Notes under the pieces: model-generated
Database searches by the model: none
What the model saw: only the letters and a program-made list of their open reading frames with translations
Told to the model about the DNA's origin: nothing
In this document: one piece after another, positions 4,828 through 57,385 of the stretch
Layout: every line of letters starts with the position of its first letter
Position numbering within the stretch: position 1 is the stretch's first letter
NCBI GenBank assembly: GCA_944363705.1
Contig: CALVUY010000001.1
Coordinates: forward strand, 1-59,914
DNA: 59,914 nt
Direction of reading: 5' to 3'
Origin: an uncultured Bacilli bacterium
GTDB lineage: Bacteria; Bacillota_I; Bacilli_A; RF39; UBA660
Made by a program: the position numbers and the translations under genes

Positions 4828-5265
4828 ATGTCATTATATGATAGAATGCTTAATATTGCTAATATAGATAAAGAATCTATTATTAGAAAAGCAATAGAAA
4901 ATACTAAAAGTGACTTAGATGGATTAGAGTATGAGAGAATGTGTTTAGTATATAATTGGTACTTATATGAAAATCTAAAAGATATGTCATGTCTTGCTTA
5001 TATAGTAGATACTGATGATTTAGAATTTCATTATAAACATAGATTTGTTTTAGTACCAGATGATGATGGTAATTATTATTTAGCAGATTTAACCTATGAA
5101 CAATTTGGTACAGATGATGAAGTGCTAAATAAATTATATAATGATGGTTATGAAAAGATAGATAATGATAAATACCGTTACTATTTGAGTAAGGTAACTG
5201 GTAGTGATAAAGATATAACAATTGATGAAAGCCTGTTTAGGGAAGCAAAGGGACTTGGTAAATAA
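4828..5265 (+). CDS. hypothetical protein, translationally coupled to ppdK
   Basis: 145-aa ORF. ATG lies 1 nt after the ppdK TAA. No family recognised by eye. Confidence 0.55.
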   Translation: MSLYDRMLNIANIDKESIIRKAIENTKSDLDGLEYERMCLVYNWYLYENLKDMSCLAYIVDTDDLEFHYKHRFVLVPDDDGNYYLADLTYEQFGTDDEVLNKLYNDGYEKIDNDKYRYYLSKVTGSDKDITIDESLFREAKGLGK

Positions 5266-5278
5266 TATCAAGTCCTTT
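5251..5278 (+). terminator. conserved terminator-like hairpin, copy A (GGACTTGGTAAATAATATCAAGTCC)
   Basis: 10-bp stem (one G-U) with 5-nt loop AATAA. Overlaps the last codons LGK-stop of the 4828..5265 ORF. Short T-run. Confidence 0.55.
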
Positions 5279-5347: not shown

Positions 5348-5376
5348 TTGACATTTATGTCAAAATATAGTATATT
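5348..5376 (+). promoter_or_regulatory. sigma-A type promoter for the repeat RNA (TTGACA - 17 nt - TATATT)
   Basis: TTGACA at 5348-5353, 17-nt spacer, TATATT at 5371-5376. The -35 sits inside the perfect palindrome TTGACAtttaTGTCAA (5348-5363). Confidence 0.6.
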
Positions 5377-5406
5377 ATTATTGCATTTAAGAAATGTAAT
5401 ATGTAC

Positions 5407-5510
5407 ATGTTAGCCGCTTATGGATGGTGCGGGTTATAAATGATTCCAATCGCGAAATGTTAGTCGCTTCCGAGTGGTGCGAGTTATAAATGATCTCGGT
5501 CGAAAATGTT
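5407..5510 (+). ncRNA. tandem-repeat RNA, putative type III antitoxin (ToxI/antiQ/CptI-like): 2 full units plus 5 nt of a third
   Basis: Units 5407-5456 (50 nt) and 5457-5505 (49 nt) both start ATGTTAG, and ATGTT recurs at 5506. The point substitutions between units fall in two predicted helices and keep pairing (pseudoknot). They lie between a promoter and a terminator, just upstream of a ToxN-like ORF. Confidence 0.7.
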
Positions 5511-5511
5511 T

Positions 5512-5547
5512 GAAAACTTTATTCTTTTGAATAGAGTTTTCTTTTTT
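5512..5547 (+). terminator. rho-independent terminator between repeat RNA and toxin ORF
   Basis: GAAAACTTTATTC / GAATAGAGTTTTC forms a 13-bp stem (one G-U) with loop TTTT, followed by TTTTTT. Confidence 0.8.
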
Positions 5548-5638
5548 CTAAAAAATAGAACTTTTGTACTTGCAAACAAAGTTATAATTTGATATATTTT
5601 AGTTACAAGTTATATTTGTTATTGGGGGTGCTTATAAA

Positions 5639-6109
5639 ATGAAAGTTAAAACGGGATATATTTATCATATTAAAGATGAATTTTTTGATAAGATTAATGA
5701 CAAAGGTTTAATGATAAATCATGAAAATGGACGAGCAAGACCTACTTACTTTACGATTAAAGATAAGGATATATTATGGTTTATTCCATTAAGTAGTAAA
5801 GTTTCTAAGTATCAACCTATAATAGATAAAAAGATTAAGAAATATGGAGATTGCCGTTCTATAATGATAAGAGAAATTGCCGAAAAGAAATCGGTTATAT
5901 TATTGCAAAATGCTTTTCCTACATTAGAAAAATATATAGATCATCCGCATACAATAAATGGTGCCCCTGCTAGGGTTGCGGATAATTTAAAAGATGAGAT
6001 TTTACAAAATTTTAATTCATTATTAGCTTTAAAGAAACAAGGAATTAATTTGTTTTTCACTGATATTGATAAAATTAAAGAGATGATGCTTGAAGAACTT
6101 GGCAAATAA
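5639..6109 (+). CDS. ToxN/AbiQ/CptN-like endoribonuclease toxin (type III TA)
   Basis: 156 aa. The N-terminal pattern GYIYHIKDEFFDKIND...RPTYFTIKD...WFIPLSSK resembles ToxN-family toxins. RBS GGGGGTG. The context (repeats plus terminator upstream) is diagnostic. The family call is by eye only. Confidence 0.65.
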   Translation: MKVKTGYIYHIKDEFFDKINDKGLMINHENGRARPTYFTIKDKDILWFIPLSSKVSKYQPIIDKKIKKYGDCRSIMIREIAEKKSVILLQNAFPTLEKYIDHPHTINGAPARVADNLKDEILQNFNSLLALKKQGINLFFTDIDKIKEMMLEELGK

Positions 6110-6124
6110 TGTCAAGTTATTTTC
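6096..6124 (+). terminator. conserved terminator-like hairpin, copy B (AACTTGGCAAATAATGTCAAGTT)
   Basis: 9-bp stem (one G-U), loop AATAA. Overlaps the last codons LGK-stop of the toxin ORF. Confidence 0.55.
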
Positions 6125-6249
6125 TTATGAAAAAAATTTTCATTATAGATTGCTTATTGAAGCAACTTGAAAAAATGATTAATAAAAATAGATAATTAAC
6201 TAGGATTTTTAATTTATTTTTGATAAAATAATTTTAGGAAGGTGATTAT

Positions 6250-7254
6250 ATGAAATTTTTAATTACAGGAGGAGCAGGATTTATTGGAAGTAATTATTTA
6301 CATTACGTTACTGATAAATATAAAGATGATTATTTTGTTTGTTTAGATGCTCTAACTTATGCTGGTAATTATAATAACATTAAAGATTTAGAGGGGAAAG
6401 ATAATTATAAATTTGTAAAAGGAGATATTACTGATAGAGATTTTATCAATAAACTATTTAGTGATGAAAAGTTTGATGTTGTAATTAATTTTGCAGCAGA
6501 GTCTCATGTTGATAATTCTATTAAAAATCCAGAAATATTTTTAACTACTAATATTATTGGTACTGAAGTATTAATGGATGCATCACTTAAATATAATGTT
6601 AAAAGATATCATCAAATATCAACTGACGAAGTATATGGAGATTTACCTTTAGATAGGCCAGATTTACTATTTACAGAAAATACTCCACTTCATACATCTA
6701 GTCCATATTCTACTAGTAAAGCAAGTGCAGATTTATTAGTCATGGCATATCATCGTACTTATGGATTACCTGTTACTATTAGTAGATGCTCTAATAATTA
6801 TGGACCATATCAATTTCCAGAAAAATTAATACCAGTTGTTATATCTAAAGCATTAAATAATGAAAAAGTACCTGTTTATGGAACTGGGGAAAATGTAAGA
6901 GATTGGATTCATGTACATGATCATAATGTTGGTGTTGACTTAATTGTTAGAAATGGTAAGGTAGGAGAAGTATATAATTTAGGTGGACACTCTGAAAGAC
7001 ATAATATTGATATAGTTAAAACTATATTAAAACAAATGGGTAAGAGTGAAGATTTAATAACATTTGTTGAAGATAGAAAAGGTCATGATTTAAGATATGC
7101 AATAGATTCAAGTAAAGTAGAAAAGGAATTAGGATGGGAACGTACTTATACTTTTGAAGATGGTATTAAAGAAACAATAGATTGGTACTTAAATAATGAA
7201 GAATGGATTAATGATATAAAAAGTGGTGCTTATAAAGAAGCATATAAAGATTAA
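6250..7254 (+). CDS. rfbB: dTDP-glucose 4,6-dehydratase
   Basis: 334 aa. TGGAGFIGSN Rossmann motif, YSTSKASAD catalytic YxxxK, overall RmlB-like sequence. Confidence 0.88.
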   Translation: MKFLITGGAGFIGSNYLHYVTDKYKDDYFVCLDALTYAGNYNNIKDLEGKDNYKFVKGDITDRDFINKLFSDEKFDVVINFAAESHVDNSIKNPEIFLTTNIIGTEVLMDASLKYNVKRYHQISTDEVYGDLPLDRPDLLFTENTPLHTSSPYSTSKASADLLVMAYHRTYGLPVTISRCSNNYGPYQFPEKLIPVVISKALNNEKVPVYGTGENVRDWIHVHDHNVGVDLIVRNGKVGEVYNLGGHSERHNIDIVKTILKQMGKSEDLITFVEDRKGHDLRYAIDSSKVEKELGWERTYTFEDGIKETIDWYLNNEEWINDIKSGAYKEAYKD

Positions 7255-23677: not shown

Positions 23678-24203
23678 AAATGACTTTGCAGATAAAATTA
23701 TAGATATGTCTAATATCATAATTAAATCTTTAGAAAACGATGGCAAGATTTTAATTGCAGGAAATGGTGGTAGTGCTGCTGATGCTCAACATTTTGCGGC
23801 AGAAATTGTAGGAAGGTTTGTATTAGAGAGAAGTGGTTATCCCGCTATTGCTTTAACAACTGATACTTCAATTTTAACTGCTGTTGCTAATGATTATGGT
23901 TATGATAAAGTTTTTTCAAGACAAGTAGAGGCTTTAGGAAATAAAAATGATGTTTTTATTGGTATTTCTACTAGTGGAAATTCTAAAAATATTATAGAAG
24001 CGATTAAGGAAGCCAAAAATAAAGGAATGACTGTTTTAGGGTTAGTAGGTAAAGATGGAGGACTTATGAAAGATATTTGTGATGTTTGCTTAGTATTTAA
24101 CTATAAAGATACTGCTAGAGTTCAAGAGCATCATATTATGTCAATACATATTATTTGTGAGATAGTAGAAAGAAGTTTAAAAGATTATTATGAAAAACAA
24201 TAA
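23616..24203 (+). CDS. gmhA: D-sedoheptulose-7-phosphate isomerase
   Basis: 195 aa. SIS domain with [15 protein letters not shown] and ISTSGNS motifs. RBS GGAGG. Confidence 0.88.
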
Positions 24204-42910: not shown

Positions 42911-44695
42911 ATGAGATATGGAGGTAAAGCAGATTCTTTATTATATTTGACTAGTAATAATATTTTAGTACCTAAATTTTTTGTTGTGAGTAAAGATGAT
43001 TATATTCAATTTTTAACAGATAACAATATTTACAAAAAAATTGAAGAGTTATTTATTGATAAGAAGTACAAAGACATAAAAGATTTGCTTATGAATCAAG
43101 ATATAACTTATAATTTATCTAAAAAATTGGATTTTGAATTATCTAAGATGAATTCTAATTTTTTTGCTATTAGATCTTCTGCTAGTAATGAGGATGGAAA
43201 GAATAAATCATTCGCTGGACAGTACGATACTTTTTTAAATGTAAAAAAAGAAGACATCTTTTTAAATATAAAGAAGTGTTTCTGTTCTTTATACAATGAT
43301 AATGTTATTAGTTATAGTGATGATTTTGATATTTATGGTATTAATGTTATTATACAGGTTATGATTGATTCAGACTATTCCGGTGTTGCCTTTACAGTTG
43401 ATCCATCAAGTGAATCTGATAACTATATTTTAATTGAAATGACTGAAGGACTAGGGGAAAAATTAGTATCTGGAAAAGTGATACCTAATAAGTTTTTTGT
43501 TAGAAAAGAAACAGGAATGATTGATTTGAAGATAGGAGAACTTTCTTTAGATGAAGTTATTTTTAATCGCTTAATATTAGAAATAGAGAAGACAGAAAAA
43601 ATATATAAATGTCCTATGGATATAGAATATGCAATTAAAGATAGAAAAATATACATTTTACAAGCTAGGCCTATTACTGCTAGAACTATTTTACCTAAAT
43701 CGTTTAGTTTAACTTTAACTAGACAAAAATCTCTTATAGATATAGAGTTATATTATAAAGGAGAATATTTTGGTATTAAAAATATTACTAAAAATTTATA
43801 TTATTTTAAGCCTTTATTCGTTTATAATAATGTAGATAATAATGTTTCTATCTATTATAATAATACAGACTTAGAAGAATTACCAAATCCTATGTATTAT
43901 TTATTAGATATATATTTTGATAAGACATTAAAATATTATAGAAAAATAAAAAAAGATATAGAATATTTAAATAATACTATTAATAATAAGTTGGAAATAG
44001 ATTATAGAACTTATATAGATAAAATAATAGAAATATATCCATTCACTAGTTTAGGACAATTAGCAGGGCATTTTAATGACACTAGTAAAAGAGTAAAGGA
44101 TTTATTAATAGAATTTAGAGAAAAGTATGATTATATTATTTATAAAGCTGTTGACTATTTAGTTTTTAAATTTAAAGCGATATTACCGGATAATTATAAA
44201 GAATATATAGACTTTTTACTTATAGATGAAATAATAAATAGTAAGTTACCTAGTATAGAAAGTTTAGAAAATAGAAAGCTTGGTTATATTTATTATAATA
44301 ATAGTCTTTATGTTACTACTGACTATGATAAATTTTTTGGAGATAATAATATTAATATAGAAGAAGCTAGTAACAGCTTACTAAATGGAACATTTGCATA
44401 TTCATCTAACACTAATATAACTGGTAGAGTATGTGTTATATTAAGTGATAAAGATTTTAATAACTTTAAAAGAGGAGATATTATCGTTACACCTATGACT
44501 TCACCTAAATTTCTTAGTCTTATTAAGGAATGTAAAGCAATTATAACAGATGAAGGTGGAACTTTGTCTCATGCTGCTATAATATCAAGGGAGTTAAAAA
44601 TACCATGTTTGGTAGGGTGTACTAATGCTACAAAGAATTTATCTACAGGTAATATGATTGAAATAAATAAAAGAGGAGAAATAATTATTTTATAA
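42911..44695 (+). CDS. PEP-utilising-enzyme family protein (PPDK_N ATP-grasp + C-terminal phosphohistidine swivel domain; no PEP/pyruvate barrel)
   Basis: 594 aa. N-terminal YGGKADSL..., FAIRSSASNEDG and FAGQYDTFLNV, and C-terminal TDEGGTLSHAAIISRELKIPCLVG. Confidence 0.7.
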   Translation: MRYGGKADSLLYLTSNNILVPKFFVVSKDDYIQFLTDNNIYKKIEELFIDKKYKDIKDLLMNQDITYNLSKKLDFELSKMNSNFFAIRSSASNEDGKNKSFAGQYDTFLNVKKEDIFLNIKKCFCSLYNDNVISYSDDFDIYGINVIIQVMIDSDYSGVAFTVDPSSESDNYILIEMTEGLGEKLVSGKVIPNKFFVRKETGMIDLKIGELSLDEVIFNRLILEIEKTEKIYKCPMDIEYAIKDRKIYILQARPITARTILPKSFSLTLTRQKSLIDIELYYKGEYFGIKNITKNLYYFKPLFVYNNVDNNVSIYYNNTDLEELPNPMYYLLDIYFDKTLKYYRKIKKDIEYLNNTINNKLEIDYRTYIDKIIEIYPFTSLGQLAGHFNDTSKRVKDLLIEFREKYDYIIYKAVDYLVFKFKAILPDNYKEYIDFLLIDEIINSKLPSIESLENRKLGYIYYNNSLYVTTDYDKFFGDNNINIEEASNSLLNGTFAYSSNTNITGRVCVILSDKDFNNFKRGDIIVTPMTSPKFLSLIKECKAIITDEGGTLSHAAIISRELKIPCLVGCTNATKNLSTGNMIEINKRGEIIIL

Positions 44696-46015
44696 TATTT
44701 CATCCTCTTTTAATTGTTCTTTATTATTTACTGATGGTGTTATTATTTCATTTTTAGTATTTTTATTATTGTTTTTCTCATAAGTAATACCTCTAATTTT
44801 ACAGTATACGTCTAAATCATCATCAACATCTATAATTCTATAAATTTCATCAAAAGAAGTAGAACCATCTAATACTTTTAATAATCCATCTTGTAACATA
44901 GTTATAACATCTGATGTATAAACCATTTTATTTAAATCATCTTTTTCTAAATTTTCTTCATTTAAAGCATTTCTAATTTCATCATTAATCATTAATACTT
45001 CTTGAATTGCAACTCGTCCATGGTAACCTTTATTACATTTATCACATCCTTTGGGATTAGCATTATATATTTCATCAACATCTTTATCTAAAGCTAGTTT
45101 AAATACTTTTTTCTGATATGGAGTAGTTTCTTCTTTAATACGGCAATGTGGACATACCATTTTGGCAAGTTTTTGAGAAATAATACCAGATAGGGCACTA
45201 GATAATAAATATCTTTCAACATTCATATCAAGGAGTCTTTCAATAGTACTTAATGAGTTATTAGTATGGATTGTTGATAAAACTAAGTGACCTGTAATAG
45301 AGGCTCTTACAGCAATTTTAGCAGTTTCACTATCACGAATTTCTCCAATAAGAATTACATTGGGATCTTGTCTTAAAATAGATCTTAAAACAGTTGCAAA
45401 ATCAAGGCCTATTTCACTATTTACTTGAACTTGATTTAGTCCCTCTAGATTCATTTCTATTGGATCTTCGACAGTAATAATATTAGTCTCTTTCTTGTTT
45501 AATACTTGTAGAATAGAGTAGACAGTAGTACTTTTACCACTACCAGTCGCTCCAGTTATTAGAATAATACCATTTGGTTCTGAAATCATTTTTTTTAATT
45601 TTTTAAAGTTATCATTATTGAAACCAAGAGCATCAATTCCTTGTAAACTTCTAGTATAATCAAGAATACGAATAACACATTTTTCACCTTCGTTAGTGGG
45701 TAATGTTGATACACGAGTTTCTAGGTTAAGACCTTTAATAGTTCCTTTAATAGAACCATCTTGAGGTAATCTACTTTCGGTAATATTCATATTGGCAATA
45801 AGTTTAATTCTGGTTATTAAATTTCTCTCATATATTTTAGGGATTTGTGTATAATCCTGTAAATCTCCATCAACTCTAATTCTAACCATTAAACAGTCTT
45901 CTCTAGGATCAAAATGAATATCACTAGCTCCTTTTTTAGATGCATTAGCGATTATATCATCAACAACATTAACAATAGGTGTTTTTGTCAAATCATAGGT
46001 TACCAAAAGTATCAA
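44690..46015 (-). CDS. type II/IV secretion-family ATPase (PilB/GspE-like)
   Basis: 441 aa. Walker A GATGSGKST, Asp box, His box (STIHTN), tetracysteine CPHC...CDKC. Lacks a long N-terminal domain. The true start may be TTG 46006, with better spacing from AGGGG. Confidence 0.8.
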   Translation of the reverse strand: MILLVTYDLTKTPIVNVVDDIIANASKKGASDIHFDPREDCLMVRIRVDGDLQDYTQIPKIYERNLITRIKLIANMNITESRLPQDGSIKGTIKGLNLETRVSTLPTNEGEKCVIRILDYTRSLQGIDALGFNNDNFKKLKKMISEPNGIILITGATGSGKSTTVYSILQVLNKKETNIITVEDPIEMNLEGLNQVQVNSEIGLDFATVLRSILRQDPNVILIGEIRDSETAKIAVRASITGHLVLSTIHTNNSLSTIERLLDMNVERYLLSSALSGIISQKLAKMVCPHCRIKEETTPYQKKVFKLALDKDVDEIYNANPKGCDKCNKGYHGRVAIQEVLMINDEIRNALNEENLEKDDLNKMVYTSDVITMLQDGLLKVLDGSTSFDEIYRIIDVDDDLDVYCKIRGITYEKNNNKNTKNEIITPSVNNKEQLKEDEIL

Positions 46016-46093
46016 CCCCTTTACTTTATTCTATTCTTTTACTATAATATATTATATAGTAAGAATAACTTAATTACAAGAGGGAGCTTAAAA

Positions 46094-46636
46094 ATGAAAA
46101 GTAAAATAAAGTTAAATAACAAAGGTTTTATATTAGTAGAAACTTTAATAGTTGGTGTTTTTATTATGGGAATATTTTCTTTGCTTTATACTAACTTTTT
46201 TCCTCTTATTGGTGAATATGAAAGATATAAAGATTATGATACAGTAGAATCCACATATATTGCTCATTGGGCCAGAATGATAGCTTTAAAAGGTTTACCT
46301 GATTCTAGTTATAATCTTGCTAATAGTGCAGGCTATGCAGACATTAGTGATTGTTCTTTATATACAAAATCTGATGGAATAAACTCATGTGCTGCTTTTA
46401 TGACAATGAATAATATTTCTAAACTTTATTTAATACCTTATTCTACATCTGTCTTTAAAAACCATGTTAAAGATAATACTAATTTTACTAGAAGTTTTAG
46501 AGAGTATATATCTTATTTACCAACCTATAGTAAAAATACTAACAAAACACCAAGTACAGGTTATTATAGAGTAATAGTCGAATATATTTCAAATAATACT
46601 TATAAGTATGGTACTATTGAGGTACTAAAGGGATAG
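46094..46636 (+). CDS. type IV pilin-like (prepilin/pseudopilin) protein
   Basis: ATG 46094 follows AGAGGGAG. Class III signal KGFILVETLIV (G|F with Glu at +5). The track ORF from 45914 is an antisense-overlapping extension. Confidence 0.75.
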   Translation: MKSKIKLNNKGFILVETLIVGVFIMGIFSLLYTNFFPLIGEYERYKDYDTVESTYIAHWARMIALKGLPDSSYNLANSAGYADISDCSLYTKSDGINSCAAFMTMNNISKLYLIPYSTSVFKNHVKDNTNFTRSFREYISYLPTYSKNTNKTPSTGYYRVIVEYISNNTYKYGTIEVLKG

Positions 46637-46646
46637 GTGATACTGT

Positions 46647-47153
46647 ATGAATTTAAATAAAAAAGGAATAACCTCAGTTGAACTATTAGTATGTTTTATT
46701 ATTATTTCAACTATAGTTGTTAGTATGTATAATTTAATACTAAATTATCGTAACAGAGAACAAATAGAAGAAATTAATAATGAAGTAATATCTTATAGTA
46801 ATAACTTACAAGAGATTATTCAATCTGATTTAGTTATGGGACATTTAGTAAATGTTACTAGTGTAAGTGATGATGGATATAGTGCCACCTTTGCTTTTGA
46901 TAATCCTAATAGTTACACAACAACATTAGAAATTGATCCAGATAGAGGTGTTATTAGTTATGGAAAAAGCGGAGAAATAATAGATTATGAGATACCAAGT
47001 ATTGCAGATTTAATGTTAAGCCCAGAATCTAGTATAGAATATCTTCCTGCTACTAATGGGTATGTAAAAATTACTATTATTTTAACTCATCCTAATTTTG
47101 AAGATGAAACATATTCTTTTATGATAAATTGTCCTGTTAATTATGTTTATTAA
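46647..47153 (+). CDS. type IV pilin-like (pseudopilin) protein
   Basis: 168 aa. KKGITSVELLV prepilin-type N-terminus with Glu at +5 and a hydrophobic helix. Confidence 0.7.
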   Translation: MNLNKKGITSVELLVCFIIISTIVVSMYNLILNYRNREQIEEINNEVISYSNNLQEIIQSDLVMGHLVNVTSVSDDGYSATFAFDNPNSYTTTLEIDPDRGVISYGKSGEIIDYEIPSIADLMLSPESSIEYLPATNGYVKITIILTHPNFEDETYSFMINCPVNYVY

Positions 47154-57298: not shown

Positions 57299-57385
57299 GC
57301 AGGAATGGCGGAATAGGTAGACGCACTATCTTGAGGGGGTAGTGATTAATTAATCGTGCGAGTTCAAATCTCGTTTCCTGCACCA
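57299..57385 (+). tRNA. tRNA-Leu (anticodon GAG), CCA encoded
   Basis: Acceptor GCAGGAA/TTCCTGC. D arm GCG..CGC. Anticodon stem CTATC/GGTAG with loop TTGAGGG (GAG at 57333-57335). Long variable arm GATTA-at-TAATC. T arm GCGAG-TTCAAAT-CTCGT. Ends ACCA. Confidence 0.9.

Follow-up and report, generated by a model that had tools for sequence, protein, structure and literature searches.

A probable type III toxin-antitoxin module of the CptIN family in the chromosome of an uncultured Bacilli bacterium

What occupies the 373-nt gap between position 5265, the stop of a 145-amino-acid (aa) open reading frame (ORF), and the ATG at 5639 in a contig from an uncultured Bacilli bacterium (GCA_944363705.1, CALVUY010000001.1), and does it belong together with the 156-aa ORF that adjoins it? 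The window, that is, the whole stretch of DNA analysed here, comprises 59,914 nt with a G+C content of 26.6%. An initial annotation made from the sequence alone had called this gap the largest intergenic one, and had placed in it a promoter, two repeats followed by the letters ATGTT, a 13-bp terminator and a ribosome-binding site (RBS), all upstream of the 156-aa ORF and in the layout of a type III toxin-antitoxin (TA) locus. All of these elements are indeed present, at the coordinates given below, and the gap is probably the largest, as the larger ones on a crude map (23678-24189 and 46016-46646) are filled by overlapping ORFs. Our answer is that the gap and the adjoining ORF very probably form a complete chromosomal type III TA module of the CptIN family. 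We make this assignment because the product of the ORF passes an NCBIfam equivalog model and matches the PDB entry 4RMO, the helices of the repeat RNA covary as those of a pseudoknot, and the cassette is kept in relatives; the type III layout proposed initially has thus held up. The order read in the sequence, namely, promoter, repeats, terminator, RBS and ORF, agrees with the operational definition of type III systems, in which a toxin homologue is preceded, in the upstream direction, by a terminator and then by tandem repeats (PMC5086642). The anatomy of the module, the family of its toxin, the covariation of its RNA and the conservation of the cassette are established here. The locus is a new member of CptIN, a class of system that has already been described; it is not fundamentally new and opens no new class. 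It stands for a real and widespread RNA-protein TA module, found across hundreds of uncultured gut Bacilli species, that escapes Pfam, PADLOC and Rfam and is nameless in the public protein collections searched.

The toxin gene and its relatives

The ORF, cptN, lies on the forward strand at 5639-6109, starts with ATG and is predicted from NCBIfam and PDB matches to encode a 156-aa endoribonuclease toxin of the CptN family. It matches the NCBIfam equivalog NF047359.1 (type III toxin-antitoxin system CptIN family toxin) with an E-value of 2.5e-46 and 157.2 bits against a cut-off of 90; the match covers profile positions 1-150 of 150, and this is the sole NCBIfam family at E <= 1. A single-sequence search of the PDB aligned residues 5-149 with 4RMO, the CptN of Eubacterium rectale (CptN-Er), at E = 1.7e-18, and a profile of 24 relatives recovered the same entry at E = 6.4e-22 as the only solved structure matched. 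The initial annotation had likened the protein to ToxN, AbiQ and CptN alike. The resemblance to CptN stands on NF047359.1 and 4RMO, but that to ToxN and AbiQ does not, as Pfam returned no family for the toxin at E <= 1 and no ToxN or AbiQ chain was matched in the PDB by either the single-sequence or the profile search. As for TenpN, the CptIN model was the only NCBIfam match at E <= 1, the presence of a separate TenpN model in the library not having been checked. The expectation that protein-centred annotation would report only a hypothetical protein was largely borne out, since Pfam and PADLOC (0 matches to the toxin) are silent, no source names the protein and its plasmid relatives are annotated as hypothetical; the current NCBIfam release would name it.

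In a species-representative genome set, 355 genomes encode a relative of the toxin. Counts of cassette features given below refer to the best 80 of these 355 species genomes, and to the 77 loci with enough upstream DNA for a repeat unit. The best 80 relatives are 71-98% identical to the window toxin and all come from uncultured gut Bacilli of low G+C content, labelled 'Tenericutes', Clostridium sp. CAG:302/914/628 and Candidatus Onthousia. A metagenome-scale collection holds 2,703 relatives at E <= 1e-3, the best 120 of which are 83-100% identical and none of which is named; no relative was found in a phage collection. The WxIPLSS motif is retained in the alignment to 4RMO, and IPLSSK is present in 74 of the 80 relatives. 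The active site of CptN-Er comprises a Ser-Ser/Thr-Arg triad, Asp81/Ser85 and Tyr104 (PMC4627078). Ser52 and Ser53 are kept in the window toxin, as is Ser85, which is invariant in the relatives, and Asp81 of CptN-Er corresponds to Glu82, a variable position.

The toxin ORF is intact in 75 of the 80 loci, the other five having a lost start codon or a premature stop. These damaged genes are found in loci L012, L020, L065, L041 and L063, with an ATG to ATC change at position 3001 in L012 and premature stops in L020 and L065, and the repeats persist in such loci. In addition, locus L001 harbors at 2404-2571 a 55-aa ORF left over from another, different cptN allele. This remnant lies ~430 nt upstream of the intact module of L001, suggesting allele replacement or a decayed tandem copy at the site. 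Damaged toxin genes and a remnant of this kind are typical of TA loci. The module lies downstream of ppdK in about 30 loci, usually together with the 145-aa ORF, and in unrelated contexts elsewhere, with variable insertions around it; these varied contexts fit a small self-contained mobile cassette.

The CptI repeats and their predicted fold

The repeat array spans 5407-5510 on the forward strand and consists of 2.1 copies arranged head-to-tail with 50-nt spacing. Unit 1 (5407-5456, 50 nt) is followed by unit 2 (5457-5505, 49 nt) and by the truncated stub AUGUU of a third unit (5506-5510), which remakes the A-rich AAAUGUU junction 3' of unit 2. The two units are 84% identical over their first 38 nt and 77% identical over a 44-column core. 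Exactly two units are present in 73 of the 77 loci, with 50-nt spacing in 69 of these, and an alignment of 21 diverse related cassettes retains both units as well as an AATGTTT stub past unit 2. A covariance model built from related units recovered unit 1 with 72.9 bits (E = 2e-17) and unit 2 with 76.0 bits (E = 3e-15), and found no further CptI copy in the 59.9-kb window. Tandem Repeats Finder reports no array in the window, because two diverged copies (~77% identity) do not reach its score; a separate repeat search and the covariance model confirmed the repeats. Rfam yielded no meaningful match, the best ones having E-values of at least 0.25 and being to unrelated small RNAs that mostly match the terminator, and at gathering thresholds the window holds only a tRNA.

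Each unit is predicted to form two short helices, which we call S1 and S2. In unit 1, S1 pairs 5414-5417 (CCGC) with 5429-5432 (GCGG) and S2 pairs 5421-5424 (UGGA) with 5445-5448 (UCCA), the A-rich loop L2 occupying 5433-5444. In unit 2, S1 pairs 5464-5467 (UCGC) with 5479-5482 (GCGA) and S2 pairs 5470-5474 (CCGAG) with 5495-5499 (CUCGG), with L2 at 5483-5494. Eight of the 12 differences between the two units make four fully compensatory pairs (CCGC/GCGG versus UCGC/GCGA, and UGGA/UCCA versus CGAG/CUCG), and a further two replace an A.A mismatch by a C-G pair. We extended this comparison by aligning 96 distinct units, taken from related loci as well as from the window. All of the S1 cells (columns 9-12 with 24-27) are paired (100%), pair 9-27 being C-G in 49 units and U-A in 47 and never broken; 92.5% of the S2 cells (columns 15-19 with 40-44) are paired, and all five S2 pairs vary on both sides. 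Over both helices, six of the nine pairs have changes on both sides, and 95.8% of cells are paired, versus 84.5% in shuffled alignments and 25-55% in slid controls, which displace the 3' partners by 1-3 columns. The covariation score of 0.411, versus 0.197, was matched by 0 of 500 shuffles; since the units are related sequences, this count is no probability, and the slid controls and the independent pair types weigh more.

Because S1 and S2 interleave (S1 5', S2 5', S1 3' and S2 3' arms), the predicted fold is an H-type pseudoknot with a long A-rich L2, which is 12 nt in length and contains invariant A residues. RNAalifold, a tool that cannot predict pseudoknots, recovered only S1 from the unit alignment. 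Possible extensions of the helices (pairs 7-29, 8-28 and 14-45) were rejected as mostly unpaired. The 96 natural variants thus provide comparative support for a CptI pseudoknot of a kind that could not be had in 2012, when CptI sequences could not be aligned (PMC3401426), and could seed an Rfam family.

Units 1 and 2 differ within their helices and in the 3' tail, while conservation is seen in the tails and in L2. These differences are also position-specific: at column 9, 64 of 73 first units have C and 57 of 73 second units have U, and at column 16, 65 of 73 first units have U and 69 of 73 second units have C. Across genomes, first units are more alike (0.866) than the two units within one genome (0.808). 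The simplest reading would be that the two units both function and that compensatory changes let their helices drift. Heterotypy is not obligatory, since four loci (L064, L067, L070 and L073) carry near-identical units. The unit junctions AAAUGUU are invariant and are the likely processing site, although the exact bond is unreadable from sequence; this is by analogy with CptI-Er, the E. rectale RNA, which ends in A45 with a 2',3'-cyclic phosphate (PMC4627078).

Expression, proposed mechanism and alternative explanations

The predicted antitoxin promoter is of the sigma-70 type and lies at 5348-5376 on the forward strand, with the -35 element TTGACA at 5348-5353, a 17-nt spacer and the -10 element TATATT at 5371-5376. 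It has 11 of 12 consensus positions and is the top-scoring site in the region. However, promoter-like sites are common in DNA of 26.6% G+C (12 found versus 8.2 expected), hence the hexamers are weak evidence taken alone and the support comes from conservation: TTGAC/T-N16-18-TAnnnT is found at the same place in 73 of the 77 related loci, and the -35 and the TATAGTATAtT block are near-invariant in the alignment of 21 cassettes. We propose that this promoter would be strong and constitutive. At the predicted 5' end of the transcript lies a 7-bp leader hairpin (UGCAUUU-AAG-AAAUGUA, 5382-5398 on the forward strand, ViennaRNA -2.9 kcal/mol). Of 73 related loci, 66 have a hairpin of at least 4 bp in this position, and its stem varies by compensatory change (e.g., UGCACU/AGUGUA, UGUACU/AGUACU and UACAUU/AAUGUA); the hairpin may act as a 5' stabiliser of the RNA. 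The array is followed by an intrinsic terminator (5512-5547, forward strand) with a 13-bp stem at 5512-5541, a UUUU loop and then U6; its free energy is -14.7 kcal/mol (z = -6.1), and 0 of 200 shuffles were equally stable. In 76 of the 77 related loci, a stem of 7 bp or more followed by a T-run lies between units and gene, the stems varying among loci. The RBS, GGGGGUG (GGGGGTG in the DNA) at 5624-5630 on the forward strand, is 8 nt ahead of the ATG, and a GGAG or GGGGG element is found at the same place in related loci. The module probably ends at a terminator-like hairpin over the cptN stop codon (6096-6126, forward strand), which has a 9-bp stem at 6096-6118 and, after it, a T-rich tail.

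As to the single-promoter, bicistronic organisation that is a trait of the family, the conserved upstream promoter is accompanied by a second conserved motif past the terminator. TGnTAnnnT, resembling an extended -10 element, stands past the terminator and ahead of the RBS in 60 of 71 distinct spacers of related loci, versus 9.7 +/- 2.7 in shuffles, mostly ~9 nt past the terminator stem and 17-28 nt ahead of the ATG. In the subclade of the window, the spacer from terminator to toxin is ~53 nt longer and carries TGATATATT together with TTGCAA; in the window itself the candidate promoter lies at 5570-5598 on the forward strand, with TTGCAA at 5570-5575, 17 nt, and the TG-extended -10 TGATATATT at 5590-5598 (9 of 12 positions, with TG). 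This conserved motif suggests a weak promoter of cptN's own. Since it is conserved after the terminator, single-promoter control is not assured, and the leaky terminator supposed in the initial annotation may not be the route of toxin expression here.

RNA processing, complex formation, toxicity and the biological role at this locus are what we infer from the characterised family, as follows. Transcription from the promoter at 5348-5376 would yield a short RNA consisting of the 5' hairpin, the two 49-50-nt CptI units and the third-unit stub, and would mostly stop at 5512-5547. Each unit would take the shape of an H-type pseudoknot of two interleaved 4-5-bp helices and a 12-nt A-rich loop. CptN, an endoribonuclease of the ToxN/Kid fold, would be made at a lower level by terminator read-through, from the weak extended -10 promoter, or by both, and would cut the abundant precursor at the invariant A-rich AAAUGUU junctions to release single units. 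It would then stay on these units in a closed, inactive RNA-protein ring, which is a 2:2 heterotetramer in the solved E. rectale complex, a stoichiometry known for CptIN-Er alone (PMC4627078). Upon a stop of transcription or loss of the locus, the labile RNA would decay, and the freed, more stable CptN would cleave cellular RNAs and arrest growth. A role in phage defence, raised in the initial annotation, is an assumption: the two CptIN systems tested so far, of E. rectale and Ruminococcus torques, gave no protection from the coliphages tested in E. coli, and CptIN-Er stabilised a plasmid (PMC3401426, PMC4627078, PMC5086642).

We offer tentatively, as a possibility we think rather less likely than a conventional arrangement, that this clade has rewired CptIN in two ways, by giving the toxin its own extended -10 promoter immediately past a strong terminator and by keeping two paralogous units, A then B, over long evolutionary distances. 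If so, antitoxin and toxin would be separate transcription units whose ratio is set by promoter strengths and not by terminator leakiness, and units A and B could build an asymmetric CptN2:CptI-A:CptI-B ring or take different roles. An alternating A/B array on a Clostridium perfringens plasmid, described below, fits retained paralogous units, and the four clade loci with near-identical units argue against an obligate heterotypic complex. Both features, the diverged position-specific units and the promoter-like element past the terminator, are relevant to the way in which type III systems fix the ratio of antitoxin to toxin.

Several observations weigh against the assignment of the locus to a complete CptIN module. 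Compared with the active site of CptN-Er, the triad Arg is replaced by Lys54 and Tyr104 by His104 in the window toxin. An AlphaFold2 model from a shallow alignment of 24 sequences reached a predicted local distance difference test (pLDDT) score of 43.8, too poor to confirm the fold. The unit length of 49-50 nt is slightly beyond the published 40-48 nt (PMC3401426), and the two units are not near-identical, unlike published cptI repeats (PMC12283969, PMC3401426). Moreover, when applied to the distant CptI arrays of two plasmid loci, the RNA model of the clade gave 14.9 bits for Megamonas (E = 0.023, marginal) and nothing significant for C. perfringens. The active-site replacements would suit a decayed or domesticated remnant, in which a CptN homologue has lost nuclease activity, the repeats are relics and nothing toxic or regulatory is left; that such decay takes place is seen in the five damaged genes among the 80 relatives and in the 55-aa cptN fragment of L001. 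We nevertheless consider a remnant very unlikely, as the substitutions are fixed in the clade, Lys54 being near-invariant and His104 present in 80 of 80 relatives alongside the well-kept IPLSSK, the ORF stays intact in the great majority of loci at 71-98% identity, the helices are maintained by compensatory changes, and promoter and terminator are conserved too. Given that the clade conserves both Lys54 and His104 and that Lys is also found in the active site of ToxN (PMC5086642), the two replacements more likely represent an active-site variant than an inactivation. Fixed residues, intact ORFs, compensatory helices and a kept promoter and terminator indicate that ongoing selection acts on the whole cassette.

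The same repeats might be read without any antitoxin. They lie upstream of a gene and ahead of a terminator, as in attenuation leaders, and the failure of Rfam to match them leaves their RNA with no independent label, so they could be a cis-acting 5' leader (an attenuator, a riboswitch-like element or a protein-binding site) in front of a stand-alone RNase. We hold this to be more improbable still than a remnant: in the family of this toxin, upstream repeats in this layout are the antitoxin, and a single CptI unit neutralises the toxin (PMC4627078); the unit is duplicated here, each copy being a pseudoknot complete in itself and having its own covariation; no competing anti-terminator pairing was observed; and the conserved promoter-like motif past the terminator would uncouple the gene from such a leader. 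Alternatively, each repeat could encode a functional 10-aa peptide, since an ATG-to-TAA mini-ORF stands in the same register in both units (MLAAYGWCGL in unit 1, MLVASEWCEL in unit 2) and in those of many relatives. We give this reading almost no credence and rejected it, because the mini-ORFs have no RBS, some relatives have an internal stop or a frameshift (e.g., MLAAY*WCGV and MFSRLWMVRVI), and the peptide sequence shifts radically (YG to SE, G to E) where the RNA pairs are kept, a substitution pattern that fits helices, not codons. We therefore retain the CptIN module, with the repeats as its CptI antitoxin.

Genomic neighbourhood and relation to known systems

The 145-aa ORF upstream of the module (4828-5265) overlaps the stop codon of ppdK and has a terminator-like hairpin of its own at 5248-5278. 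Neither Pfam nor NCBIfam assigns this ORF to a family, and its weak partial match to a Cas8b model (E = 3e-4) is regarded as chance. We considered this ORF as a part of the module and rejected it, since it is conserved beside ppdK and accompanies the TA genes only in syntenic relatives. The next gene downstream is a dTDP-glucose 4,6-dehydratase-like (rfbB-like) ORF starting at 6250. Between the TA module and the rfbB-like gene, loci L001 (3510-5858) and L012 (3531-5789) contain an insert of ~2.4 kb, which is missing from the window (6110-6249) and encodes GDSL-lipase-like, GtrA-like and family-2 glycosyltransferase-like proteins, as judged by eye from translations. The TA region is variable and lies at the margin of a surface-polysaccharide cluster. 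Elsewhere in the window, the region 44690-47153 contains, on the minus strand, a gene resembling those of ComGA/PilB-type secretion ATPases, followed by ORFs that by eye have prepilin-type N-termini (e.g., KGFILVETLIV and KGITSVELLV), and a tRNA-Leu (GAG) is located at 57299-57385.

Type III families are delimited by the sequence of the toxin (PMC3401426). Blower et al. (2012) described 33 cptIN loci, all of them on chromosomes, whose repeats number 1.9-3.4 at 40-48 nt each and whose toxins measure 45-213 aa (PMC3401426). The window locus agrees with this description, except that its unit is 1-2 nt above the range. Its toxin is of the same family as those of the CptIN systems of E. rectale (4RMO; Rao et al. 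2015, PMC4627078) and of Coprococcus catus and R. torques (Blower et al. 2012, PMC3401426), with which the locus shares a chromosomal location in a gut Firmicute, a promoter, about two repeats, a Rho-independent terminator and the toxin. Its RNA resembles CptI-Er in the H-type pseudoknot, a 5' tail of ~7 nt, an S1 that starts around nt 7-8 and whose 3' arm extends to nt 26, an A-rich L2 from nt 27 and an A-rich unit junction. On the other hand, the units are 49-50 nt long versus 45 nt in CptI-Er, L2 has 12 nt versus 9 nt, and the gap between S1 and S2 is 2-3 nt versus a single G. Unlike CptI-Er, the clade of the window has an invariant UGGU between the S2 5' arm and the S1 3' arm, and its covariation-supported helices are merely 4-5 bp. 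Furthermore, the units of the window are position-specific paralogues of ~77% identity, whereas published CptI copies are described as nearly identical (PMC12283969), and the toxin differs from CptN-Er in the Arg to Lys and Tyr104 to His replacements discussed above. The extended -10-like motif past the terminator and the uncultured low-G+C gut Bacilli as hosts also set the clade apart from known CptIN systems.

Other type III families are more remote. ToxIN of Pectobacterium atrosepticum and Bacillus thuringiensis and AbiQ/antiQ of Lactococcus lactis share the principle of inhibitory pseudoknot repeats cut by the toxin, with a terminator between RNA and toxin gene and cleavage in A-rich sequence (PMC5086642). 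However, their toxins have no detectable sequence similarity to the window toxin, their units are of 34-36 nt in 2.8-5.5 copies and their complexes are 3:3 triangles; anti-phage activity, demonstrated for both ToxIN-Pa and AbiQ, has been shown for no CptIN. TenpIN of Photorhabdus luminescens and relatives resembles the window locus in having about two long units of 39-57 nt, which often differ from each other and keep a conserved stretch of A residues in their second half, but its toxin is of another family (PMC12283969).

A guide to the breadth of CptIN comes from two plasmid loci, in Megamonas funiformis (NZ_CP048628) and on C. perfringens pCP346-91 (NZ_CP075965), whose toxins pass NF047359 at 185 and 192 bits, share 31-40% protein identity with the window toxin and are annotated as 'hypothetical protein'. 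We thus observed plasmid-borne CptIN modules, versus none in the 2012 survey. The Megamonas locus (L086, 523-616) has 2 x 47-nt units in the same layout with a similar core, AUGUCUACCGCU...GCGGGAUAUAAAA. The C. perfringens locus (L087, 382-640) has about five units in the order A-A-B-A-B, with A of 47 nt and B of 50 nt, whose stems are entirely different but compensatory. The extended -10 motif after the terminator is not evident in either. Since the C. perfringens array holds two unit types, non-identical CptI units are not unique to the clade of the window. From these distant members that pass NF047359, the range of CptI unit lengths appears wider than that tabulated in 2012. The initial annotation had seen in the unit length and the non-identical units a possible new subfamily; this is not supported, as the toxin belongs to CptIN at the equivalog level and the distant Megamonas CptIN, whose units are of 47 nt, agrees with the window locus in layout and resembles it in core sequence. 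Judged from these comparisons, the departures of the window locus from known CptIN systems, namely, its unit length, its diverged units and its extended -10-like motif, are modest.

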